Both the position numbers and the translations under genes were made by a program. Below are positions 334 to 64,000 of a stretch of DNA of 64,000 nt, in pieces (within the stretch, counting starts at the first letter, position 1; each line of letters starts with the position of its first letter). Below the pieces are notes generated by a model that worked only from the letters and a program-made list of their open reading frames with translations, was not told the origin of the DNA and searched no databases. This stretch comes from a virus: IMG/VR virus record IMGVR_UViG_3300036985_004624; one strand, given 5' to 3'.

Positions 334-1017
334 TTATCTCCGTGAATCTACCGGCACTAATCTCATAAATTCAGAACGAACGTGCGATTCATCTTTAAAA
401 CACCCGCCCAATTTACTTGTTACAGTACTCGATCCCACATCTTCCACGCCACGACTCTTAACACAAAAATGTTGAGCATGAATAACTACTCCGATATTAT
501 CTGTTTCAAGAATATATTGTAGTGCATGATAAATCTGCTCAGTTAGTCGCTCTTGGATTTGCGGCCTCTTACTAAAGTATTCAACGATCCGATTAATCTT
601 ACTAAGGCCCAGTACCTTTTGCTTAGGAATATAACCGACCGTTGCAACACCATCGATAACAACAAAGTGATGTTCGCAGTTAGATTGTACATTGATATTC
701 CTTTCAACGACCATTTCGTCGTATTTCATTTTATTATCTACAGTGGTGCATTTAGGAAATGCTTCGTAGTCAAGACCCCAGAAGATTTCGTTTACATACA
801 TTTTAGCGACACGCTTAGGTGTTTCTTCTAAACTATCATCGCTCAGGTCTAGCCCTAGCGTTTCCATGATAGCAGCGAAATGATGTTCGATCTTTTCTAT
901 TTTTTCTTTACGATCCATAAAATCAGATTCGCAGGGTGTTTCGACACCCATTCTAACTAGATGCTCGTGTACTTCCTGACCCAATCCCGGGTCGCATTTT
1001 GTTTTATTATATGACAT
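334..1017 (-). CDS. folE: GTP cyclohydrolase I
   Basis: ETPKRVAKMY, SNCEHHF, GLSKINRIV, RPQIQERLT, HFCVKSRGV motifs. Confidence 0.97.
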   Translation of the reverse strand: MSYNKTKCDPGLGQEVHEHLVRMGVETPCESDFMDRKEKIEKIEHHFAAIMETLGLDLSDDSLEETPKRVAKMYVNEIFWGLDYEAFPKCTTVDNKMKYDEMVVERNINVQSNCEHHFVVIDGVATVGYIPKQKVLGLSKINRIVEYFSKRPQIQERLTEQIYHALQYILETDNIGVVIHAQHFCVKSRGVEDVGSSTVTSKLGGCFKDESHVRSEFMRLVPVDSRR

Positions 1018-1083
1018 TGATAACCTTCCTTTATGATGGTTTGTTTTTGATTTGTGCTACCATTGTGTAGCATAGTTATTTAT

Positions 1084-1770
1084 CTAAACACCTAAGATGT
1101 GTTCTCTAAAAGCGGCAGTAGAAATTGGAACGATAGGTTCGATCAATTTCAACATAGCTTCAGCATAAACACGAATTTCGTATTGTGCATGAGAATGTAA
1201 TCTAAGTTTAAGGAAGTGAAATAAGTTATGTAAATCGCAAGTAGCAAACATATGACTATATGTTCCTACCGGTAGTACCGAACGTGCTAACTCACGAGGG
1301 CAACCATTTAATATTAACTTGCGATAATGGCTGAAGGAAGCTTCGCTAGATGATCTGATAATTTCGGCCACGCCTTCTGCATCCCGATGTTGTTCGTCTG
1401 TACGCATCTGCTTATTAGATGATGACTGAGTGGTAATTTGAGCTAGTTCCGGCACGTAGAATTCTTCTGGCAGCTCTGCATAACGAGCAGAAATTTCATT
1501 AAAACTCCAAGTACGATGTCTGTGCCATTGTCTAAATACAAAGATAGGTGCTTTTACATCAAATGTAAAAACGCAAGATTCAAACGGACTGGTATGTTTA
1601 TTTTTTAACAAGTAATGGAGCAATTTGGCATCTTTGCCATCGTCGTCACCTGCTCGCCATTCTGCATCGTAGGATACTCTGGCATTACGCACAATGGATA
1701 AGTCGCTACCCATGCTTTCGACCAATCGTACATGGCCATGATCTAAAACTTTAATAATATTATCTTGCAT
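1084..1770 (-). CDS. thyX: Flavin-dependent thymidylate synthase
   Basis: ARVSY, HTSPFE, RQWHRHRTWSFNEISARY, ELARSVLP, LRLHSHAQYEIR. Start placed at ATG 1770 behind AGGAGA (ORF track starts at 1818). Confidence 0.97.
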   Translation of the reverse strand: MQDNIIKVLDHGHVRLVESMGSDLSIVRNARVSYDAEWRAGDDDGKDAKLLHYLLKNKHTSPFESCVFTFDVKAPIFVFRQWHRHRTWSFNEISARYAELPEEFYVPELAQITTQSSSNKQMRTDEQHRDAEGVAEIIRSSSEASFSHYRKLILNGCPRELARSVLPVGTYSHMFATCDLHNLFHFLKLRLHSHAQYEIRVYAEAMLKLIEPIVPISTAAFREHILGV

Positions 1771-5768: not shown

Positions 5769-7211
5769 TTACTTCCTCGCGTTAGCGCGAACTTCGTCAA
5801 AGGTGATTTCCTTCACCAAGACACCATCACGATAGACTTCCGAGAGAGCCTCGACCCACGGGCCAATGCTCTTGTCAGCCCAACCACGGGGTTGTTCAAC
5901 AGCAGATTCAAACGAACCGCCGCTTTGCCAAAGAGTCACGCGACCCTTCTTGGATGCCTTGCCGTGATCAGTGATCGGATCCTTGAACACATCACGCCAT
6001 TCTACCCGAGACGGGGTGACAAATGTTGGATCATCGCTAAACTCTACATACTCACGAACACCGATCGCAGAACACTTCATTGCAAAACGCATTGTGTCAC
6101 GATTGACTTGTTGAAGCAGCGCACCACCTTGACCAAATGCCACATTGTCTGCACTGAATCCAGCAAGTTCCATACAGAACAAAATGCTGCGAATTGTAGC
6201 ATGATCAATGCCATCACCTTGGATAACGCGGACATTGTTTAATACACGGAATCCCTTGGCGTTCTTCACAGAACCGTAGTACTTTTCCAGAATGTAAAGA
6301 CACTTGGTGACCACTTCGCTTGGTTCACCAGAGTCAGGACGAATGACAACAACAGCGCCTGAGTCAAGCACGTCTTGTTTCAGTTCTGTGCCCCACATCT
6401 TGCAGGCATTGTAAATGTCGTATGAGTCCGAGACGAACGCAATCGGGGCGCCGGCCTTGCCGTGTGTTTTCAGCATGTTCCTGTAGGAATCTACTTCGTG
6501 GTCCTTGCCCCAGGATGTTACAGTAGAATGCTCCATAGCAGGTATGCTGAACCCAGCAATACCAGCATTATAAAACTCACCTGCGTACAATAACCCAGAT
6601 ATGTTGTCAGTTCCCATGAAGTTAATGAGGTGTGCTGCTCCACCCAATCCGGAACTTTCGAAGCTACTAACGCCACGGGCGCCAAAGTCGTGAAGCTTAA
6701 AATCAATAAGAGTAGGGTCACCAGTTTTCTCCAAGTAGTCAAGAATAATTTTCTTCGATTCGTAGCTGTTTGTAGCTACTGTGGTAGGATACCAGATTGC
6801 GCGCAGAATGGCCGTTTCCAGGAAGCTTGTGAGCCACCAGCACTTCGGGTCGGTGTTGACGATTGTTGCTAGGACGTTCTTAGTCGGAATGAGTGTACCT
6901 TCTGGGGCCGCTTTAATGACGACTGGAAGACGACCTTCGTGCGCCTCAAGAATATATTCCCACCCTTCACGATAAAACGGTTCACCGTGAGCAGTGATAA
7001 TGGCTTCTGCAACATCGATATCTTCCTTGGTGATCGGAGTAGTCAAATACTCCTTGATGAATGCCTGCAATCCGAAAAAGACTGTTTTGTTCCACTGACC
7101 GCCACGCGATTCAATGTAAGAATACACATATTCGGTATTTTTAGGGTATTGATTCCACTGAGAGAATTTATAACTGTCACTATTAAGTATCAGGTTGTGA
7201 GATAATTTCAT
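5769..7211 (-). CDS. nadV: Nicotinamide phosphoribosyltransferase (NAMPT)
   Basis: DSYKFSQ, LHDFGARG, SIPAMEHS, VSDSYD, IRPDSG, IQGDG, FGQGGALLQ, RDT..FAMK, KDPITD..KASKKG. Confidence 0.96.
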   Translation of the reverse strand: MKLSHNLILNSDSYKFSQWNQYPKNTEYVYSYIESRGGQWNKTVFFGLQAFIKEYLTTPITKEDIDVAEAIITAHGEPFYREGWEYILEAHEGRLPVVIKAAPEGTLIPTKNVLATIVNTDPKCWWLTSFLETAILRAIWYPTTVATNSYESKKIILDYLEKTGDPTLIDFKLHDFGARGVSSFESSGLGGAAHLINFMGTDNISGLLYAGEFYNAGIAGFSIPAMEHSTVTSWGKDHEVDSYRNMLKTHGKAGAPIAFVSDSYDIYNACKMWGTELKQDVLDSGAVVVIRPDSGEPSEVVTKCLYILEKYYGSVKNAKGFRVLNNVRVIQGDGIDHATIRSILFCMELAGFSADNVAFGQGGALLQQVNRDTMRFAMKCSAIGVREYVEFSDDPTFVTPSRVEWRDVFKDPITDHGKASKKGRVTLWQSGGSFESAVEQPRGWADKSIGPWVEALSEVYRDGVLVKEITFDEVRANARK

Positions 7212-7300: not shown

Positions 7301-8276
7301 TTTTTTTGGACAATACCAAATTCCCGCACGTAACTAATCCTTGTTCCTCGTCCATCGAAGGAACAAAAACTAACACATCGTAGCCTGCCAGTTTAAGTGA
7401 TTCCTCTACCGTCTTATACGGTAGATAGGAGTCATATCCGCCAACAGTTTTAATGTTGTTTTTCCTACATGCGTCATTATTATGAATCGGAGTAATCTTT
7501 ACCATAAATTTATTCGGATCAAAAAGACCCAATAGCTTATTAGCATCTATTTCGTAGTTAGTGCTATAAGCAAAATTCAAACAATATTTTCTGCCGATAG
7601 GATCAGGCAGTCGATTTCCAATATCGGATATTTCTTTAAGGGTTAGCTGCCCATACGCAAACATATCATTCCGTTGTTCCTCACTAGTTGAATTTATGCT
7701 CAACTGTAATCCTGCCTGGCCATTATATAGCTCATTTTTAATCTGGCACCATTCATTTAATCTCGCTTCATTGTGCTTAAACTTATTCGGTAACGAAGTA
7801 GTTAGAACAGGATGAATAACTTCGGTACGGAGATTTAACTCTTGCTGAATAATATGCTTGTTAGTAAATAACCATCTTGCGAAGTTGAAAACATGATCAT
7901 TAACAATAGGTTCGCCCATCCGAGCAAAATGAATATTCAACCGGTCAGTATAATGAACTTCGGGAAAACATTTTACTGCCTCATAAAACTGTAACTTAAG
8001 ATCGTCGAAGGATGCATTACCTTTAAATGGAATCTTTGGCACATCGCAAAATCGGCAGTTTTGGATACAACCATATTGCGTTGAGAGTGTGATCACCCAT
8101 TTTTCAGATAAGGGCAAACAATTGCCATTTGCAACTCCGTTGATTTCATTTGGAAATCCGAGAAAATCAGCTTTTATGTTTCGTGATTTTCCGTAGTCTC
8201 CGATGGATAATGTTTCGAGTTCGCCACGTAATCCATCGACTGTAAAAAGGTAGCCAGTTGGTATCTTATTTCTCAT
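7287..8276 (-). CDS. RlmN/Cfr-like radical SAM enzyme
   Basis: STQYGCIQNCRFC (CxxxCxxC), RMGEP, QLSINS, C-terminal TCGNL. Confidence 0.8.
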   Translation of the reverse strand: MRNKIPTGYLFTVDGLRGELETLSIGDYGKSRNIKADFLGFPNEINGVANGNCLPLSEKWVITLSTQYGCIQNCRFCDVPKIPFKGNASFDDLKLQFYEAVKCFPEVHYTDRLNIHFARMGEPIVNDHVFNFARWLFTNKHIIQQELNLRTEVIHPVLTTSLPNKFKHNEARLNEWCQIKNELYNGQAGLQLSINSTSEEQRNDMFAYGQLTLKEISDIGNRLPDPIGRKYCLNFAYSTNYEIDANKLLGLFDPNKFMVKITPIHNNDACRKNNIKTVGGYDSYLPYKTVEESLKLAGYDVLVFVPSMDEEQGLVTCGNLVLSKKIDLK

Positions 8277-11738: not shown

Positions 11739-12102
11739 TTTCTTCTTCCCAGGGACACTGTTTCCATCCTATTCTATTAAAACATTCTTCTACTAAAGGA
11801 CTTACTAAACCTTCATTAACGCCGCAATAAAAGTCCATATAATCTTCTGTTGTATTGTAAAACATATTGCGTAGACCCGCAATAACTCCAGCGGATCCTC
11901 TCCACGAAATCGACCATATATTTGAATTTATGCCCTTTAACTTATCGATGATTTTTTGATCGCGATCTCTTTCATCTATCTTTTCCCATCGCATATTACA
12001 CATTGCAGCATAGAATTCTCTCGCAAGTTCTTTATTTTCCAAATGTGTAATTATGATTGGGTCGGCAATCATATCTCGCTCTAAATCAGGCGTTAAGTCC
12101 AT
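11731..12102 (-). CDS. Hypothetical protein
   Basis: FYAAMCN, SWRGSAGVIA, DYMDFYC motifs; coupled to neighbours. Confidence 0.7.
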   Translation of the reverse strand: MDLTPDLERDMIADPIIITHLENKELAREFYAAMCNMRWEKIDERDRDQKIIDKLKGINSNIWSISWRGSAGVIAGLRNMFYNTTEDYMDFYCGVNEGLVSPLVEECFNRIGWKQCPWEEEIV

Positions 12103-28733: not shown

Positions 28734-28801
28734 ATTATATATTTATCAGTAAGAACATCGAAAAAAGTTTCAGCTGATTCTAAAACGTATAAATAACTGG
28801 T

Positions 28802-29173
28802 ATGACAAATATTCTAGAGATAAAAGATAAATTTCCGTTCTTAAGTGGACTAAAATCGCCTACCTATGAATATATAGGTATTATTCAAAACTCCGATGAC
28901 AGAATAATAAGCTTCTACGATTATGAAGCCATACATACTCCGCAAGAAAAGATACTTTTCTTAGAGTTAGGTGAAATATGGTGGTGGGAAAGTAATAGGT
29001 TGCTACCTATTAATATATTCTTACAAGGCCAGATGAACCCGTTTCGTTATTGTATGAAGACTGTAGTTAATAAAGACATAGAAGTTATGTTTGGCACATT
29101 GACTAGTCTAAATAATATAATGAAGAAACGCATTAAGAAGCGTCAGATACAGTTAATCAGAAATACTGATTAA
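28802..29173 (+). CDS. Hypothetical protein
   Basis: TATAAATA upstream; KFPFLS, YIGIIQN, LGEIWWWESNRLLPINIFL. Confidence 0.75.
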   Translation: MTNILEIKDKFPFLSGLKSPTYEYIGIIQNSDDRIISFYDYEAIHTPQEKILFLELGEIWWWESNRLLPINIFLQGQMNPFRYCMKTVVNKDIEVMFGTLTSLNNIMKKRIKKRQIQLIRNTD

Positions 29174-57456: not shown

Positions 57457-57557
57457 GTCCGGTAAGTAGATTGATAAATAGTGTACACTGTGGAAATAGT
57501 TCCACATTGAATGATGGAGATCCCCTATTAAGGGAGTACCCATTCAAGGAGATTATC

Positions 57558-58922
57558 ATGGGAAGACCCATACAGAAAAAATGGTTCGGACCGGCCACAG
57601 GCACAGGTTCACAAATTGTAGTTAGCGGCGTTAAATTTGCCGACGGAACTACAGCAACAAGCGATTTTATTATCAAACAAACAGGCTCTAATGCTTATGT
57701 TGTGCAAGATTCCGCATTATCACATGATGCAGAAATTGTATTCATGGTTAATGCAACAGACGTAGGAGATTTAAACCCCGGCGAATGTTTCATTCTTGCT
57801 ACACCATTTGGTGGTTCTGCTCTACCATGTGCAAAAATTGCACAATACAGAGTAGATCTATTTGAGGCAGATGGCTCGGTTGCAAGTTATAGTTGGTCAA
57901 CAATACCTGCTGCTGCGCCGGGCGAAGCTGATTTAATTACTGGATCGGGCGGTGTTGGTGCATTGTTAACACTTGCTGTCGACGTTGCCGGGTCTGGATA
58001 TTTTACTGCACCTGCTGTAACACTTACAGGCGGTGGTACAGGTGGTGCTGCTCACGTAACTGTCGCAGGTGCAACTGGAGTAGTAGCAACTGCGGTTATC
58101 GATTCAGCTGGATGGGGATATTCAGGTGTGTCGGTTGCTGCTCCTCCTGCATCAGTTACTGCTGTTTTAACTCCGACGTTGACAAACGGTGTGTTGAGTT
58201 TAGTTGTTGCTAATGCTGCTGCAAATGGATACTATAATGCTGTTCCAGCAGTAACAGTTGCCGCGCCACCGGCCGCTACAACTGCCACTGCCACTGCCAC
58301 TATTTCTGCTGGCCAAGTAAACGGCTATATAACACTTGTAGGCGGCGGTTATTATCCGGCTATACCTTTAATTGCTGTCGGTGCTCCACCGGCACCCGTT
58401 ACTGCTACCGCAACACCCCCATTAAATGATGGTGCTGATGGTGTAACACTAGGCGCATTGGTAATAACTGCTGCTGGCGGGTATTATTCCGTAGAACCAG
58501 TAGTCACATTAGGTGGCGGTAATGGTGATGCTGTTGCTGTCGCAACTGTAGCCAACGGTGTAGTTACTGGTGTAACTGTTACTGGCGCTGGAACAGGCTT
58601 CGTCGGGCTTGTCACTGTTTCTATTGCTGTACCCGACGTGGCACCCGTTCAGGCGGTTCTTAGCGCAGTATTAACAAACGGTGCTGTGACAAGTATCTCC
58701 AGAGATACACTGGGTGCAGGATACCTTGCTGCACCTGGTCTGGTTTTTGATGCTCCTCCAGCGGCTGTTGCTGGTGCTGCAACTGCTACACTGACTGCTC
58801 ATAGAGTCACATCAGTGGCCGGTGTTACTGGGTCTGGATATTTCACAGCGCCGGTAGTGTCGGTTGCGGCAGCAAATGTTGCGCCAGTTCAGGCCACATT
58901 GACTGCTACATTCTCTGTCTAA
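57558..58922 (+). CDS. Ala/Gly/Val/Thr-rich virion structural protein
   Basis: MGRPIQKKWFG start, IIKQ.G...Y, repeated G.GY..AP.V...APPA..A.ATA units; late motif GATAAATA at 57473, AAGGAG SD. Confidence 0.75.
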   Translation: MGRPIQKKWFGPATGTGSQIVVSGVKFADGTTATSDFIIKQTGSNAYVVQDSALSHDAEIVFMVNATDVGDLNPGECFILATPFGGSALPCAKIAQYRVDLFEADGSVASYSWSTIPAAAPGEADLITGSGGVGALLTLAVDVAGSGYFTAPAVTLTGGGTGGAAHVTVAGATGVVATAVIDSAGWGYSGVSVAAPPASVTAVLTPTLTNGVLSLVVANAAANGYYNAVPAVTVAAPPAATTATATATISAGQVNGYITLVGGGYYPAIPLIAVGAPPAPVTATATPPLNDGADGVTLGALVITAAGGYYSVEPVVTLGGGNGDAVAVATVANGVVTGVTVTGAGTGFVGLVTVSIAVPDVAPVQAVLSAVLTNGAVTSISRDTLGAGYLAAPGLVFDAPPAAVAGAATATLTAHRVTSVAGVTGSGYFTAPVVSVAAANVAPVQATLTATFSV

Positions 58923-58937
58923 GAAATTTAGCTCAAC

Positions 58938-58964
58938 AAAAAGCCCACTTTATGTGGGCTTTTT
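58938..58964. terminator. Bidirectional intrinsic terminator
   Basis: AAAAAGCCCAC-TTTAT-GTGGGCTTTTT between convergent units. Confidence 0.85.
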
Positions 58965-58966
58965 AT

Positions 58967-59003
58967 TGGTACCGCTAGTAGGAATCGAACCCGGATCTAA
59001 TCT
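58967..59003 (-). pseudogene. 3' half of an interrupted tRNA
   Basis: AGATT-AGAT-CCGGG-TTCGATT-CCTAC-TAGCGGT-A-CCA; acceptor strand pairs with ATCGCTA at 59750-59744. Confidence 0.75.
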
Positions 59004-59023
59004 ATAATGATGATAAATACTGT

Positions 59024-59689
59024 ATGATTAAATATATAAACTGCTGCCATTGTGGAATACATACAGAATTACCTAAATCAAACCCATATAAAAAGTTTTG
59101 CTCGATTAAATGTGGAGCATTATTTCAAAATAAAGATAAAATAAATCTGTTAGCGATCGAATACGAAAAATCACCTAATATATGTTTCACATGCGAATGT
59201 AATCTGCCGTACTCAAAAAGACATAATAAATATTGTTCACGATCTTGTTCCGCGAAAACTACGAAAAATAATACCACTCACGGAAAATACATAATAACAG
59301 AGAAAGAATGTATTATATGCAAATCTATAACAACCAATAACAAAGTATGTTCGACATCTTGTAGGGAAATTCTATTATCAAAACCAAGAAAATATTTTAC
59401 AGAGGAAGAAAGATTACATGCTAAACGAGCAATACAACGTGAAGCAAATGCCAGGTATTGCGCTAAAAAGAAATATAATACACCAGTTGACGAAGATTTA
59501 TCCGCTATAAAACTTTTTTACAGAAACTGTCCGCCGGGATATGAAGTGGATCATAAAACACCCATATCTAAAGGCGGTGCCCACTCCTTGGTTAATATGC
59601 AATATCTCACAATTTCTGATAATAGAAAAAAACATGCTAAACTAGATTGGTGCCCCGGGGGCGAATCAAACGCCCGACACCATTCTTAG
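59024..59689 (+). mobile_element. HNH endonuclease with N-terminal Cys-rich zinc-binding repeats
   Basis: CxxC...(F/Y)CSxxC repeats; YEVDHKTPISKGGAHSLVNMQYL...NRKK; own GATAAATA late motif. Confidence 0.88.
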
Positions 59690-59723
59690 GAGGAATGTAC
59701 TCTATTCACTGAGCTACCGGGGC
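59648..59723 (-). tRNA. tRNA-Arg(CCT)
   Basis: GCCCCGG acceptor, CATTC-CTCCTAA-GAATG anticodon arm, GGGCG-TTTGATT-CGCCC, encoded CCA. Confidence 0.92.
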
Positions 59724-59750
59724 CTATTCTATCCATTGAACTATAGCGAT
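59724..59750 (-). pseudogene. 5' half of an interrupted tRNA
   Basis: ATCGCTA-TA-GTTC-AATGGATA-GAAT-A-G (acceptor 5' strand plus D-arm). Confidence 0.75.
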
Positions 59751-59751
59751 T

Positions 59752-59985
59752 TTATGTTTCACTTAACGCCTGTCGAAATCCTGTATATCCGCCCGGAACA
59801 AAAGACCCATCTATAAAAATTTGTGGCACAGTTCGTACTTTTGTACCGATTCTATCTTCTAAAGTTTGAAGATTCGAACCTTCTCTAACATTTATATAGT
59901 TGTATTGTATATCATTTGTTTCACATAATTGAACTGCTTGTGTGCAATAGGTACATGAATCCGCTCCGTAAATCTCTACCTGCAT
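59752..59985 (-). CDS. Glutaredoxin
   Basis: CTYC, RTVPQIFIDG..V.GGY. Confidence 0.92.
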   Translation of the reverse strand: MQVEIYGADSCTYCTQAVQLCETNDIQYNYINVREGSNLQTLEDRIGTKVRTVPQIFIDGSFVPGGYTGFRQALSET

Positions 59986-60029
59986 ATTGTGTCTCCGTTA
60001 AGTTACTTACTTACCTAAAAACTTGTAGG

Positions 60030-60239
60030 TTAATCTATAAATGACATAAATTCTAGCCGACCATCTGGATACTCGAATAGCCCCAATAATGATACATTTT
60101 CTCTACGATTTCGTCCCTGCGGATATTCTGCTATCTTAATGACTAATACATTTTTTCGGTATGTTTCTGTTATCTTAACTACTTCGCCTTTGTATCCTTC
60201 GAACTGAAGTTTACTGCCTTCTTTATAATATGATGCCAT
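60030..60239 (-). CDS. Hypothetical protein
   Basis: 69-aa ORF with AAGG SD. Confidence 0.55.
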   Translation of the reverse strand: MASYYKEGSKLQFEGYKGEVVKITETYRKNVLVIKIAEYPQGRNRRENVSLLGLFEYPDGRLEFMSFID

Positions 60240-60250
60240 TATGCCTTTTA

Positions 60251-61180
60251 TTAAATCCCCGGAATCGTGCCAGTAAACGACGGAGAAGATTTTATACCTT
60301 CTAAATCAGAATATGTTGTACACATTGGCAATTTGCATATAATGGGCTCCTTAGATAAAGTAAATCCTGTAAAAATATTACTTAAATTTGCACCCTGATT
60401 ACAGCAAGTATTCGAAACATTGCCTATTTCATCAATCCGAACATAGGTATTAGGTACATGACATGTCCACCCGGTATATCTGTTCATATTTTTTGATACC
60501 ATCTCTGCTGGATCTGTTCGATATATAATTTCATCATTGTGATTATATATCCGTACCCATTTATCCACTGGATATGCCGATTCCGATATCCACGATATCT
60601 GTTCGGATGTATATCTTTCATTAACAGTTTGCCAATTATCCATAATTGCCTTTGTTGTCACAGAAAATCCGGCAGCGACTAATATATTATATACTGCAAT
60701 GCATTCATCCCATCTGTCGGGCAGCATCATTAAGCAAATTTTTCCTAACTTCTTATGCACGTTATAGATGAGATCAGCAATAGCTATAAATCTATCTAAA
60801 TTAGCATACTCTAAATGATAGGATAGAAATACAGCATTTATCATTGGTGTAATTCTTTCCCAGAATGCAATAGGTCTTGCACCATTACTTAATAAGTTAA
60901 TATTAATATAATCTGGTTTCTCTAAAATAATCTTTTCAATATCTGGATGATACGTCGGTTCGCCGCCACCTAATAACACATCACACGGTGGTAATTTTTT
61001 CAATGTATCCTGTACCACCTGTGTATTATGAAACGGAGAATTCCCCGAATAAAATTTAGGAATACAATAGCTGCACCGATATGTGCATATGTTGCCTAAT
61101 ATCCAGTATACTTTTATATTTCTGCGAGATTTGCCATCTATATAAGCTACTTCCGGATCATAAATATTCAATTCATTCAT
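60251..61180 (-). CDS. Radical SAM protein with twitch/SPASM-like C-terminus
   Basis: CTYRCSYC, GGGEPT, SNG, GW.C, CC, C...C. Confidence 0.88.
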   Translation of the reverse strand: MNELNIYDPEVAYIDGKSRRNIKVYWILGNICTYRCSYCIPKFYSGNSPFHNTQVVQDTLKKLPPCDVLLGGGEPTYHPDIEKIILEKPDYININLLSNGARPIAFWERITPMINAVFLSYHLEYANLDRFIAIADLIYNVHKKLGKICLMMLPDRWDECIAVYNILVAAGFSVTTKAIMDNWQTVNERYTSEQISWISESAYPVDKWVRIYNHNDEIIYRTDPAEMVSKNMNRYTGWTCHVPNTYVRIDEIGNVSNTCCNQGANLSNIFTGFTLSKEPIICKLPMCTTYSDLEGIKSSPSFTGTIPGI

Positions 61181-61446
61181 ACAATACTTATCTGACTTGC
61201 TGCTATCATTTTTGCTGCAATTTCCTCTGCTCTGGCCTGTATATCCGATTTAGTCATACACGCTTTCTTCCTGATTAATGCATCTCTTACCCATTGCGGG
61301 AAATGAGATCCTTCTAAGTTGGCAAGTTGCTCGGCCGTATAATTATCTAAATTATCTAGTACAAGTTGAACGTCTGGCTTCTTTTTCATTTTATTAAAAA
61401 ACGAATCTTTGTATCCGCGTGGGCCTAAAGCATAATTACCTTCCAT
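61177..61446 (-). CDS. Hypothetical protein
   Basis: Start MEGNY directly after the upstream stop (ORF track extends to 61572). Confidence 0.55.
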   Translation of the reverse strand: MEGNYALGPRGYKDSFFNKMKKKPDVQLVLDNLDNYTAEQLANLEGSHFPQWVRDALIRKKACMTKSDIQARAEEIAAKMIAASQISIV

Positions 61447-61447
61447 A

Positions 61448-61921
61448 TTAATATACCATCTTAGATTTATCGAACTTAAAATAGTATACTCGGCCGTTAC
61501 CATATGAGCTAGGTATATATTGATGCATACCGCCGCACTCGACAGCTTTATACATATACATCCTGCCTTCATAAAGAAATATGAGTGCTAGGTAATCTAA
61601 CCTCTTAATCTCTGCTGCCTTCTTGTATTGCTCGAATTTATCATCTACCGTAAAGCATTTATTACCATTTATTGTATATATAGAATTTTTAGATTTTACA
61701 TCTACCGCAAATGTTCCTTTGGTAGGATTTTTATTATATACTGCGAAATCTGGGAGAACTACTTTACCTTCTGTCCCGTATAAGCAAGGTCCTGCAAATT
61801 CTCCGTGTTTCTGTTGCCGGAGATCTTCTACGTAGCTATTATGTGCCACCAAATATGGATAGACCAGATTCTCTGCATCTATCCCCATCTCTAATTTTTC
61901 TTTAAAGTGCTCTGATTGCAT
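61448..61921 (-). CDS. PD-(D/E)XK nuclease-like protein
   Basis: G..AE, LPDF, VDVKSK. Confidence 0.6.
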   Translation of the reverse strand: MQSEHFKEKLEMGIDAENLVYPYLVAHNSYVEDLRQQKHGEFAGPCLYGTEGKVVLPDFAVYNKNPTKGTFAVDVKSKNSIYTINGNKCFTVDDKFEQYKKAAEIKRLDYLALIFLYEGRMYMYKAVECGGMHQYIPSSYGNGRVYYFKFDKSKMVY

Positions 61922-62380
61922 CTCTTACACGCATTAAAGTAATACCTAATAAGTTTTGGCCACGCCAAGTGTTTTGATCTAGTGCGCGTGGATCCTCTTC
62001 GGTGAGTCCAATACCCCAAATTCTGTCAACGGGGCTTGCCTCAACAATGATTGTATCGCCTGTATTTAATAGTGCTTCTTTCAATAAAGGGTTCTGATTA
62101 AATTTTTCAAATAAACCTTCTACCATTATATCGACTCGCTTTGCTGACCAGATTGCTTCATCATAATTAGCTACCATTCTGCCTAAATCTTTCTGTTCTT
62201 TAGGATTTCCGGTTAAGAGGATGGCATGAGCGGTATTGATATCGCCAAACATAATAGCTTTTTGGTACATCATGTATTGTTCGCCGCGGGAAAAAGAAAT
62301 ACCGTTATGAGTAAAAATACTAGGGTACCAATTTGAGAAGGGCATCTATTCTGCCAAAAAAATGTAAAGTTATGTGTCAT
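61902..62380 (-). CDS. NADAR (YbiA-like) ADP-ribosyl/N-glycosidase with a frameshift near the N-terminus
   Basis: FSNWY, EQYMMYQKA..F.D, K.LGR, KF.QN, VEASP.DRIWGIG, G.NLLG..LM.VR. The N-terminal MTHNFTFFWQNR from ATG 62380 is in a different frame. Confidence 0.88.
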
Positions 62381-62397
62381 TGTTTTCTTTCGTTATT

Positions 62398-62474
62398 TGG
62401 TACCACCGGCGAGATTCAAACTCACATCGTACGCTTTAGAAGAGCGTTGCCTTATTCGGTTAGACCACGGTGGT
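62398..62474 (-). tRNA. tRNA-Arg(TCT)
   Basis: ACCACCG/CGGTGGT acceptor, ACGCT-CTTCTAA-AGCGT, GTGAG-TTTGAAT-CTCGC, CCA. Confidence 0.92.
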
Positions 62475-62482
62475 GTAAAATT

Positions 62483-62713
62483 CTATCTAATTCTCGTAGC
62501 TTTGTAATTGCCTTTGATAAACTGATGCCAGAACCTACCTTTAGATCCGGATTTAGTCCATTTTTCAAACATAGTTCTTGTAATTCCCGGAATAGAGAAT
62601 GACTTACCATTAGACAATCTCATTGTCAGTACCTTATTCGGTCTATTATGAGTAAGGTTTGATATCCACGTAGATTCTACCTTCTTTTCTAATAATAGTT
62701 CGAATAATTTCAT
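62483..62713 (-). CDS. KTSC-domain protein with MKLFELLLE N-terminus
   Basis: VESTWISNL...LTMRLSNGKSF...SKGRFWHQFIKGNY; late motif upstream. Confidence 0.75.
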   Translation of the reverse strand: MKLFELLLEKKVESTWISNLTHNRPNKVLTMRLSNGKSFSIPGITRTMFEKWTKSGSKGRFWHQFIKGNYKATRIR

Positions 62714-62731
62714 TATACCATATTTATCATT

Positions 62732-62820
62732 TGGCGGAAGATGGAGGTATCGAACCCCAGGCCGTTGCCGACCCCAACTGTTTTCGAGGCAGTGTTATAC
62801 ACCTGTATAAATCATCTTCC
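62732..62820 (-). tRNA. tRNA-Ser(CGA), 8/4 fold with Sec-like D-arm
   Basis: GGAAGATG/CATCTTCC 8-bp acceptor, TTATAC-AGGT-GTATAA D-arm, CTCGAAA loop, long variable arm, GGGG/CCTC T-stem, G73-CCA. Confidence 0.85.
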
Positions 62821-62936
62821 ATTTCAGTATAGCGTTTTAAACATGCTTCCATTACACCAATTCCCCTTTCGGAGAACTGCGGATTCGAACCGCAACCGCT
62901 CTTTTATGAAAAGATTTTTATTTGCTGAAACTATAC
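62821..62936 (-). ncRNA. Circularly permuted tRNA-like RNA (YrlA/Y-RNA-like or tRNA mimic)
   Basis: Order 5'->3': anticodon arm TCTT-TTCATAA-AAGA, T-arm TGCGG-TTCGAAT-CCGCA, acceptor GTTCTCC-GAAA-GGGGAAT, TG, D-arm GTGT-AATGGAA-GCAT; ends pair via GTATAG/CTATAC and TTTCAG/CTGAAA. Confidence 0.8.
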
Positions 62937-62943
62937 TTTAAAA

Positions 62944-63249
62944 CTATTCATATATCGTAACTACTTCGGTAATACCGTTCGCCTTAAAATATGCATCACG
63001 TATTACATAATTTGGCTGCGTGACTTTCGCAGCAAGCCATGCATCACCATTAATTTGTGTATCGAACACTACGACATGTCGATAAACATTATCTATCAAT
63101 AGATTCTGTCCGAATGATAAAATAAATCCTTCGACAGAATGATTCCAATTATCTATGGCAACCGAAGTTGCATATGCCGATTGTCCGCTTTTAGCGAACC
63201 AATCGATATTGGCAGGTTTTGTTGCCTCTATCTTAATTACATATGCCAT
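62944..63249 (-). CDS. Hypothetical protein
   Basis: 101-aa ORF between tRNA genes. Confidence 0.6.
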   Translation of the reverse strand: MAYVIKIEATKPANIDWFAKSGQSAYATSVAIDNWNHSVEGFILSFGQNLLIDNVYRHVVVFDTQINGDAWLAAKVTQPNYVIRDAYFKANGITEVVTIYE

Positions 63250-63259
63250 TTAAAATATC

Positions 63260-63333
63260 TGGTATCGACGTCAGGAATCGGACCTGAGTTGAGCCCTTAT
63301 AAGGAGCCTATTCTACCATTGAATTACGCCGAT
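63260..63333 (-). tRNA. tRNA-Ile(TAT)
   Basis: ATCGGCG/CGTCGAT, GGCTC-CTTATAA-GGGCT, TCAGG-TCCGATT-CCTGA, A73-CCA. Confidence 0.85.
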
Positions 63334-63340
63334 AAATTCT

Positions 63341-63451
63341 TTACTTCTTTGTGCTAAATGTAGCCCACCATTCTTTAATCTGATTCCATACCTTCATCCA
63401 GAATGGAGCAAATGCTGCACCAACTGCAATACCTATAATAAAATTAAACAT
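63341..63451 (-). CDS. 36-aa membrane peptide
   Basis: MFNFIIGIAVGAAFAPFWMKVWNQIKEWWATFSTKK; GGAGG SD, GATAAATA late motif. Confidence 0.65.
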   Translation of the reverse strand: MFNFIIGIAVGAAFAPFWMKVWNQIKEWWATFSTKK

Positions 63452-63487
63452 ATAACCTCCGGATCAAAATACTATTTATCTCTAATT

Positions 63488-63561
63488 TGGAGCGGGGTGC
63501 GAGAATCGAACTCGCACTATCAGCTTGGAAGGCTGAAATCCTACCATTAAATGAACCCCGC
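63488..63561 (-). tRNA. tRNA-Gly(TCC)
   Basis: GCGGGGT/ACCCCGC, TCAGC-CTTCCAA-GCTGA, GCGAG-TTCGATT-CTCGC, U73-CCA. Confidence 0.93.
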
Positions 63562-63562
63562 A

Positions 63563-64000
63563 TTACTTAAAATATTCTATAAAGTATTCATTCCTTAGTT
63601 TTTCTAAATCTTCATCTAATACAGTGATATCAAGTAGCTTATTATATGCATCTATCTGCCGTTGTTCACGTACACTAAGATATTTAGCATCTTCTTGTTG
63701 TAATTGTATACTAAATCCCGGATCAAGTCTACCGGATTTTAATGAAACTATATTACTATCGCTCACAGGATTGATACCAAAACTAATATTCTTGATACCT
63801 TGCTTCTTAAACGAAATTACATACTCGATTATAGATTGTATATCTTTATAATTTAATAATGTTACCGTAATGACAATGTTTAATATAATATCTGAGTACA
63901 CATTACTACGTTCATTTAAACTGCTTGCTAATTCTTCAAAATTTCGTTTCCATAAATCCCAATTAAGATATTTTCGTGTTGCATTTTTCCCTAATGTATC
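63563..64000 (-). CDS. C-terminal part of a probable radical SAM protein (5' end outside the window)
   Basis: Frame open to the window edge: DTLGKNATRKYLNWDLWKRNFEEL...ITVTLLNY. Confidence 0.5.
   Translation of the reverse strand, partial: DTLGKNATRKYLNWDLWKRNFEELASSLNERSNVYSDIILNIVITVTLLNYKDIQSIIEYVISFKKQGIKNISFGINPVSDSNIVSLKSGRLDPGFSIQLQQEDAKYLSVREQRQIDAYNKLLDITVLDEDLEKLRNEYFIEYFK

Follow-up and report, generated by a model that had tools for sequence, protein, structure and literature searches.

A tRNA-Arg(CCU) gene of a T4-like phage split by a cassette of an HNH endonuclease gene and a second, complete tRNA-Arg(CCU) gene

Introduction

Homing endonuclease genes are thought to persist within conserved genes only by means of introns or inteins, or otherwise to reside between genes, and tRNA genes are among the most conserved of their targets. 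The question of how an endonuclease gene might occupy a tRNA gene with neither device is raised by a locus in the IMG/VR virus record IMGVR_UViG_3300036985_004624, of which the whole stretch of 64,000 nucleotides analysed is referred to below as the window. The window derives from a T4-like phage (rIIA and tail sheath are encoded, according to PHROG matches) with a G+C content of 38.7%. In it, a tRNA gene is split by a cassette composed of an HNH endonuclease gene and a complete tRNA-Arg(CCU) gene. The explanation favoured here, to which a probability of roughly 0.8 is assigned, is that a mobile HNH and tRNA-Arg(CCU) cassette invaded the phage's own tRNA-Arg(CCU) gene by intron-less homing.

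The split gene and its uninterrupted relatives

The two halves of the interrupted gene lie between a glutaredoxin gene and a hairpin terminator and enclose a cassette of 723 nt, which stands in place of 13-14 nt of the resident anticodon arm (positions 28-41). The features of the locus are listed in Table 1. A preliminary description had reported a 5' half, a tRNA-Arg(CCU) fused directly to it and an antisense HNH gene, all of which were recovered at the same positions from the sequence, from ARAGORN and from the list of open reading frames (ORFs); its estimate of about 720 nt separating the halves at the anticodon arm agrees with the length of the cassette as delimited by comparison with the related contigs L335 and L005. 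The start that it gave for the 3' half, 59003, has to be moved, as homology to the intact gene begins at 59000 instead. The acceptor strands of the two halves (59750-59744 and the 3' half), described as complementary, pair at all seven positions, including one G-U.

Relatives of the locus were traced through the glutaredoxin protein of the window. GenBank phages gave nothing related to it: a DNA search among them returned only a tRNA similarity of 55-61 nt to SPO1-like phages, and they contained no close homologue of the HNH protein. Exact searches of IMG/VR for both tRNA halves gave no match either. The empty site is represented by two independent metagenome contigs, L335 and L336, which are 98.3% identical to positions 60239-59723 of the window and carry one uninterrupted 75-nt tRNA-Arg(CCU) between glutaredoxin and the same terminator. 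The intact tRNA of L335 (490-564) begins with the same 27 nt as the 5' half, and its last 23 nt match the window, as do the stem-loop and T run of the terminator, which is identical in both except for one A in the A run preceding the stem. Six further contigs, one with the same glutaredoxin and five with a glutaredoxin 86% identical, show in their gene maps the same 121-nt gap and no HNH gene. A filled site is also found in L005, an independent IMG/VR contig with the split gene and cassette as in the window, and its empty-site partner is L001, an IMG/VR contig with an intact tRNA-Arg(CCU) and an upstream flank 95.7% identical. Finally, in the distant relative L002 (glutaredoxin 49% identical), the intact gene stands at the end of a tRNA array. 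Both the comparison of the window with L335 and L336 and that of L005 with L001 reveal a presence/absence polymorphism at one site.

Because the halves correspond to the two ends of a single gene, found uninterrupted in L335, L336, L001 and L002, they do not represent a chance resemblance, and the notion, raised in the preliminary description, that they might belong to different tRNAs can be discarded; the same four contigs are the relatives with an uninterrupted tRNA that it had proposed to look for, and the anticodon in them is CCU. The intact state is accordingly the ancestral one, and, to judge from their anticodons, the destroyed and the inserted tRNA would read the same codon. A search with a D-arm pattern showed that the tRNA-Arg(CCU) family of the resident gene is very widespread among phages, and no copy of its anticodon-arm 11-mer is left in the window.

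Two rival explanations can be judged on these grounds. The window comes from the assembly of an uncultured phage, which would allow for an assembly artefact or for the chance resemblance of two tRNA-like fragments; that the same architecture recurs in the independent L005 and, with variants, in more than 10 other contigs from different samples, and that the halves match the intact gene base for base, leaves this a very slim chance. The other rival holds that the interrupted tRNA is still functional, its halves being spliced by way of an unrecognised intron or assembled in trans as in archaeal split tRNA genes. The perfect complementarity of the acceptor strands would favour it, together with the T arm of the interrupted tRNA, which is intact in L005 and L322, but joining the separated halves would not give a complete tRNA, given that the filled allele lacks 13-14 nt of the anticodon arm and with them the anticodon itself. 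Moreover, the T stem of the window is chimeric, with two mismatches, and the insert consists of a complete tRNA and an antisense ORF, so that functional halves are just as improbable as an artefact.

Several known arrangements were considered and rejected. A group I intron in the tRNA gene, of which the preliminary description had already seen no core, is contradicted by the lack of any Rfam Intron_gpI match at E <= 1 in positions 58000-64000 and by the absence of the anticodon and its surroundings from the joined halves; at relaxed thresholds, scans of the window and of 33 related loci, a sample of the relatives, revealed no group I intron. An archaeal-type split tRNA gene is excluded by the missing anticodon arm and the chimeric T stem. 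An integrase-mediated island at a tRNA gene does not fit a 723-nt insert that leaves no room for an integrase, nor a resident tRNA that is not restored; besides the HNH gene, the insert contains no ORFs other than two short unannotated ones (45 and 50 aa) that lie inside that gene.

Table 1. Features of the split tRNA-Arg(CCU) locus in the window and tRNA-like genes of type-B cassettes in related contigs
Feature	Sequence	Positions	Strand	Basis and remarks
Glutaredoxin (NrdC-like) gene	Window	59752..59985	-	Upstream flank; ORF; Pfam Glutaredoxin E 5e-12; 99% amino acid identity in L335 and L336
5' half of resident tRNA-Arg(CCU)	Window	59724..59750	-	tRNA positions 1-27: acceptor strand, D arm, first anticodon-stem base
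Cassette tRNA-Arg(CCU), complete, with encoded CCA	Window	59648..59723	-	ARAGORN; Rfam
HNH endonuclease gene, 221 aa	Window	59024..59689	+	Antisense to interrupted tRNA; ORF, Pfam, PHROG
ATAAATA box	Window	59013..59019	+	4 nt upstream of HNH ATG; no Shine-Dalgarno
Whole inserted cassette, 723 nt	Window	59001..59723	.	Three-way comparison of window, L335 and L005
Start of 3' half, donor-derived	Window	58990..59000	-	End of anticodon stem, variable loop, T-stem 5' strand CCGGG
Rest of 3' half, native	Window	58967..58989	-	T loop, T-stem 3' strand CCTAC, acceptor strand, discriminator, CCA
Hairpin terminator with A run and T run, bidirectional	Window	58938..58966	.	Read directly; common to tRNA unit and convergent gene
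Convergent Ala/Gly-rich virion-protein-like gene	Window	57471..58922	+	Downstream flank; PHROG matches to head closure and virion structural proteins
Type-B tRNA-like gene	L084	1648-1720		
Type-B tRNA-like gene	L082	1839-1911		
Type-B tRNA-like gene	L083	2550-2622		
Type-B tRNA-like gene	L322	2973-3045		

The surroundings of the insertion differ in their conservation, the convergent gene being strongly variable among relatives, with 73-84% nucleotide identity to L335. In a sigma-70 and terminator scan, which proved uninformative, promoter-like sites were fewer than in shuffled sequences and the hairpin terminator was not listed.

Transfer of the cassette between alleles

From the perspective of sequence conservation, the insertion stands apart from its neighbourhood, as the window and L005 are 91.6% identical over 59752-58885 and only 69-76% identical in the flanks. 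Identity is not uniform within the cassette, reaching 97.9% in the N-terminal half of the HNH gene, 88.0% in its C-terminal half and 86.8% in the cassette tRNA.

The 3' half records the exchange in greater detail. The T stem is formed by GTAGG/CCTAC in L335, by CCGGG/CCTGG in L005 and L001, and by CCGGG/CCTAC in the window, whose 3' half is accordingly of donor type through the 5' strand of the T stem and native from the T loop on. The two T-stem mismatches mentioned in the preliminary description are present, but what they mark is a crossover point between two alleles, that is, a scar of recombination between two functional genes and not random decay; their origin in the decay of a pseudogene was ruled out by L335, which exposes the chimera. 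The native part of the 3' half is identical to L335 and differs from L005 at three positions. The whole 5' half is native as well, even at two D-loop positions where L005 deviates. Measured on the alleles compared here, one crossover lies at less than 10 nt from the 5' junction and the other at a distance of 11-14 nt from the 3' junction, and the donor-type tract of 11 nt within the 3' half represents co-conversion of an adjacent marker. In addition, the tertiary pair 19-56 between D loop and T loop covaries, being G-C in L335 and the window and U-A in L001 and L005, which again shows that the two halves in each case derive from a single working tRNA.

The junctions themselves are identical in different resident alleles, namely those of the window, of L005 and of the group of L417, which has a different acceptor stem. 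All this shows that the cassette was copied in by recombination, in a pattern that matches the repair of an anticodon-arm break from a cassette-bearing template, which is to say homing. The proposal of intron-less homing contained in the preliminary description is supported by the presence/absence polymorphism, by a cassette more conserved than its flanks, by the donor tract, by the recurrence of the same junctions and by the missing intron core.

The HNH endonuclease gene

The protein encoded in the cassette contains three Cys-rich, zinc-ribbon-like repeats followed by a C-terminal HNH domain. This domain is matched by Pfam PF01844 (residues 174-206, 23.2 bits against a cut-off of 21.4), the protein matches phrog_1271, "HNH endonuclease", with an E-value of 1.7e-10, and the catalytic residues D176, H177, N191 and N200 are invariant in an alignment of 11 homologues. 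In an AF2 model, the domain adopts a beta-beta-alpha arrangement (strands 173-177 and 192-196, helix 197-203; pLDDT 86-92), and Foldseek searches of the PDB return HNH domains as best matches, at the level of the domain only (E 7e-3, about 1e-2), with no informative match for the N-terminal Cys-rich repeats. A sequence search of the PDB with the protein gave only Cas8-HNH domains. Both its profile and its catalytic residues thus identify the protein as a predicted HNH (His-Me finger) endonuclease. The gene appears to be free-standing, in that it is embedded in neither an intron nor an intein: there is no Rfam intron match, and the ORF is antisense.

Compared with L005, the gene shows 34 synonymous and 8 non-synonymous changes, and the resulting dN/dS of 0.05 indicates that it is under purifying selection. 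Synonymous divergence is distributed very unevenly, with a dS of 0.08 in the N-terminal half (59024-59353) and of 0.74 in the C-terminal half (59354-59644), a difference of about nine-fold, which points to a mosaic gene and to recombination between the DNA-binding and the catalytic parts.

The 3' end of the gene and the cassette tRNA are interlocked. The overlap of the HNH C-terminus with the new tRNA, as previously described, amounts to 42 nt, and the last 14 codons of the ORF are antisense tRNA and unconserved. The TAG stop (59687-59689) is, as had been claimed, the complement of the anticodon loop, specifically of tRNA nucleotides 35-37, but its position is incidental: in L005 the ORF ends four codons earlier on a TGA, and in other variants it ends in the variable loop. 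Because the stop position varies among variants, the coincidence of stop codon and anticodon carries no meaning. What is constant in every tRNA-Arg variant is that the last conserved residues of the HNH domain lie no more than 2 codons from the tRNA 3' end, which sustains the physical lock between nuclease and tRNA that had been put forward, and it is probably this abutment, and not the stop codon, that matters.

The ATAAATA box is found 3-6 nt before the HNH ATG, with no Shine-Dalgarno sequence, in 16 of the 18 relatives examined (11 of 12 cassette variants), and only 5 ORFs in the window have such a box right before their ATG. It is a candidate promoter of the T4 late type, which would give a nearly leaderless mRNA. 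Since TATAAATA is not enriched in the window (5 found against 10.6 expected), it is conservation among the cassettes that speaks for a late promoter. Elsewhere in the window, a perfect TATAAATA precedes by 6 nt the ATG of a 123-aa ORF (28788-29173, plus strand; phrog_11637, unknown function), which lies on the strand opposite to its neighbours and shares the start context of the HNH gene.

Recurrence in other phages

The survey covered the contigs that encode HNH homologues, together with 80 IMG/VR loci. The design in which a 5' half, a whole tRNA, an antisense HNH gene and a 3' half with matching acceptor strand follow one another occurs with at least four cassette tRNAs. Type A, with tRNA-Arg(CCU), is that of the window and L005; type B (L082, L083, L084, L322 and L323) occupies the same locus as in the window; type C (L324-L326) lies in a different phage context; and type D (L327 and L328) carries a cassette tRNA-Arg(UCU). 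The design also appears in L338, where the 5' half is fused to a tRNA-Arg(UCU). Whatever tRNA the cassette carries, it is invariably the anticodon arm that the resident gene has lost. More distant HNH relatives adjoin genes for tRNA-Trp, tRNA-Met and tRNA-Pro.

This recurrence bears on the most serious rival of homing, in which the arrangement arose through general or illegitimate recombination between conserved tRNA sequences, while the HNH protein does not target the tRNA gene and is a passenger or performs another job, such as nicking for replication or packaging or the exclusion of competitors. The D arm and T loop, near-identical across the very large phage tRNA-Arg(CCU) family, would provide the substrates, and the mapped crossovers fall in those conserved stretches; the mosaic HNH gene shows that recombination is frequent, and some HNH relatives sit beside tRNAs without splitting them. 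Recombination of this kind does not account, however, for the loss of precisely the anticodon arm in independent lineages with different cassette tRNAs, for the same junctions in different resident alleles, or for the constant presence of a nuclease that is under strong purifying selection and always tightly linked to a tRNA. It is regarded here as unlikely, although it is the rival that deserves most weight.

Other layouts were met among the HNH relatives. In L339-L342, a tRNA gene is followed on the same strand by the HNH gene, which begins 5-17 nt past the CCA end, with an ATAAATA box between the two in L340 and L341, a layout that seems to be a second way for this HNH clade to occupy tRNA arrays. 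In L126, a complete tRNA-Arg(CCU) that belongs by type to the resident family (7634-7708) is overlapped by the HNH relative; a 5' half is missing, and of the T arm nothing but a decayed remnant is left beyond the HNH start (7140-7170). The same element may be present here at an older stage, or at a different one. Another contig, L271 (3422-3800), has three tandem tRNA-Arg 5' halves, of which the first two run into a GA-rich hairpin where the rest of the tRNA would be expected and only the third forms part of a complete tRNA-Arg(CCU).

Other RNA genes were detected at some of these loci. L324, a phage contig, contains next to a tRNA array a full-length match to bacterial RNase P RNA class A (847-1202, minus strand; 59 bits against a gathering score of 100, E 8e-16). 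In two further viral contigs, a beta-proteobacterial-type tmRNA (L341, 2688-3005, plus strand; 176 bits) and a skipping-rope RNA (L345, 1014-1128, plus strand; 54.6 bits) each lie less than 1 kb from the HNH relative.

The carried tRNA and its fate

The tRNA of the cassette, which follows the 5' half without a spacer, is called as Arg(CCU) by ARAGORN and scores 55.9 bits with the Rfam tRNA model, against a gathering score of 29. Compared with L005, two T-stem pairs are changed on both sides in a compensatory manner, so that the cloverleaf is kept, and this gene, like that of the HNH protein, is thus maintained by selection. The cassette and the resident tRNA differ at 34 of 76 aligned positions and, around the insertion point, at 18 of 34. 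Judged by these features, the cassette tRNA is probably a functional replacement, with the old 5' half now forming its putative 5' leader.

The gene carried by type B departs from this shape. It lies on the minus strand in the four contigs of Table 1 and specifies a 73-nt tRNA-like RNA with a CCU anticodon loop that is missed by both ARAGORN and Rfam, and it has no linker between acceptor and D stem, a D loop of 5 nt and an anticodon stem of 6 bp with a conserved A-A mismatch; the proposed fold is 100% paired and includes four compensatory pairs.

The later history of the carried tRNA is visible in L417, L419, L420 and L421, which are loci of other large phages with long tRNA arrays. They contain a type-A tRNA 96-97% identical over 97 nt and, besides these 97 nt, no nucleotide similarity to the 64-kb window. 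In this group, a fossil 5' half whose acceptor sequence is a different one directly precedes the tRNA, with the junction unchanged, and these loci contain neither an HNH gene nor a 3' half. The cassette tRNA has therefore passed between otherwise dissimilar phages and outlives the nuclease. Its retention in the L417 group is the state expected at the end of a homing cycle and the strongest evidence for the carried tRNA being the one that works. In L417 itself, the cassette-type tRNA (11905-12001) is the only tRNA-Arg(CCU) in an array of 27 tRNAs.

The same observations could be read as selection on the tRNA, according to which the incoming tRNA escapes a host anticodon nuclease or another tRNA-directed defence while the HNH gene hitch-hikes or helps it to spread. 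This would be in keeping with the strong differences between cassette and resident tRNAs, in the anticodon stem and elsewhere, with the non-canonical shape of type B and with the persistence of the tRNA after the loss of the HNH gene in L417; there is also a published precedent that links SegB, phage tRNA genes and escape from tRNA-cleaving defence (PMC13096335). Selection on the tRNA leaves the destruction of the resident gene at a fixed place unexplained, and nothing at this locus points to host defence. As the sole cause it is improbable, clearly more so than recombination with a passenger HNH gene, and it is compatible with homing rather than exclusive of it.

Two other tRNA genes of the window show unusual features. 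Positions 62736-62820 (minus strand) match the Rfam tRNA-Sec model with 46.4 bits, against a gathering score of 47, with no ARAGORN call; since the tRNA array of L005 contains a 90-nt tRNA-Ser(CGA) (1943-2032), this is probably a long-arm tRNA-Ser-like gene. The tRNA-Ile(UAU) of the window (63260-63333) is a normal one of 74 nt, and the calls in three relatives (L005 1743-1834, L002 2241-2332 and L196 6026-6118) measure 92-93 nt, with the anticodon at position 31, which could represent an insertion or a non-canonical form.

A proposed homing cycle

The favoured course of events, intron-less homing, would begin in a mixed infection, in which a phage lacking the cassette would have its intact tRNA-Arg(CCU) gene cut by the HNH endonuclease, within or beside the anticodon arm. 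The break would be repaired from a cassette-bearing genome, with the conserved tRNA halves and the flanks as homology; that a cassette-bearing template was used is shown by the crossovers, one of them inside the T arm and the other within about 9 nt of the 5' junction. In this step, the 723-nt cassette would be copied in and 13-14 nt of the anticodon arm lost. Without this part of the arm the resident gene no longer works, and presumably the filled site has ceased to be a target; the HNH protein would cut the intact allele and spare both the filled site and its own tRNA gene. The accompanying tRNA would take over the decoding of AGG, transcribed from the upstream context of the resident gene, with the old 5' half as a leader for removal by RNase P. 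Recombination can hardly part the nuclease from the compensating tRNA, because the HNH domain has its essential end right against the 3' end of the tRNA. At a later time, the HNH gene could be lost and the new tRNA kept, as in L417.

Several points weigh against this course of events. Homing in T4 usually co-converts longer stretches. The conversion tracts at this locus are very short (see above), and the true donor may therefore differ from L005. The type-B tRNAs share a 13-nt core of the anticodon arm with the resident gene of the L001 type, and recognition must therefore involve neighbouring sequence and not the core alone; the target site itself is deduced solely from what the filled allele has lost. 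Some HNH relatives (L339-L342 and L354) have no convergent tRNA. Additionally, since AGG makes up only 6.9% of the Arg codons in the long ORFs of the window and a tRNA-Arg(UCU) is present (ARAGORN), losing the resident tRNA may cost little; the resident gene may not be essential, and a spare may be little needed. Finally, this course of events does not account for the origin of the founder arrangement.

Comparison with known systems and significance

The nearest system described is that of SegB, which resembles the present one in being a free-standing nuclease gene among phage tRNA genes. SegB of T4 and T6 is a GIY-YIG homing endonuclease encoded in a tRNA gene cluster (PMC2330249; PMC13096335), which recognises a conserved element of tRNA genes, the T-psi-C motif, and spreads itself together with neighbouring tRNA genes (PMC2330249). 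SegB differs from the cassette in several respects: it is of the GIY-YIG and not the HNH type, its gene is intergenic and interrupts no other, it is not known to destroy a tRNA gene and put a carried isoacceptor in its stead, and there is no lock by overlap. The endonucleases of the T5 tRNA region are likewise site-specific endonuclease ORFs in a phage tRNA gene cluster, and neither the splitting of a tRNA gene nor a replacement tRNA is known to have been reported for them.

Within protein-coding genes, the insertion of MobE splits nrdA in phage Aeh1. Such cases resemble the cassette in that an endonuclease gene with no intron lies in an important gene whose function is rescued by another device. 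They include the "fractured genes" with split inteins, which are split by free-standing homing endonuclease genes (PMC2677866). In all of these the pieces still make the product, through protein trans-splicing or the assembly of subunits, whereas the pieces are dead in the split tRNA gene and a second, complete gene is carried. Group I introns with endonuclease ORFs also occur in the anticodon loops of tRNA genes of bacteria and cyanobacteria, where they share with the cassette both the target, the anticodon arm, and the problem of occupying a conserved gene without killing it; in the split tRNA gene, unlike these, no intron core was detected, the ORF is antisense, the anticodon arm is deleted and a spare gene takes the place of splicing.

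Full-text literature searches found no description of a nuclease cassette that destroys a tRNA gene and supplies a spare. What appears to be new is an element that destroys its target gene and brings, welded to the nuclease gene, a complete but diverged copy as a substitute. To this the window contributes an empty-site partner of 98% identity, mapped crossovers that account for the T-stem mismatches, and evidence for the whole life cycle of the element, from invasion through maintenance to loss of the nuclease with the tRNA kept.

On a balance that tips slightly in its favour, HNH and tRNA cassettes may represent a third general way, besides self-splicing introns and inteins, for homing endonuclease genes to live in conserved and useful genes, namely by destroying the target and carrying a diverged, cut-resistant copy welded to the nuclease. 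The family would have diversified to attack tRNAs for Arg (CCU and UCU), Trp, Met and Pro, would drive the turnover of tRNA genes and their horizontal transfer between unrelated phages, and the odd shapes of some carried tRNAs may reflect escape from their own nuclease. Such an element would occupy a conserved gene by replacing it. If this is true, it would explain why endonuclease genes crowd the tRNA arrays of phages and why tRNA fragments litter them, and how one tRNA gene can be 96-97% identical in phage loci that share no other detectable nucleotide similarity. As the nuclease is small and both the empty-site and the filled allele are defined, the locus would offer a clean, testable system, and it points to natural enzymes with specificity for tRNA genes.

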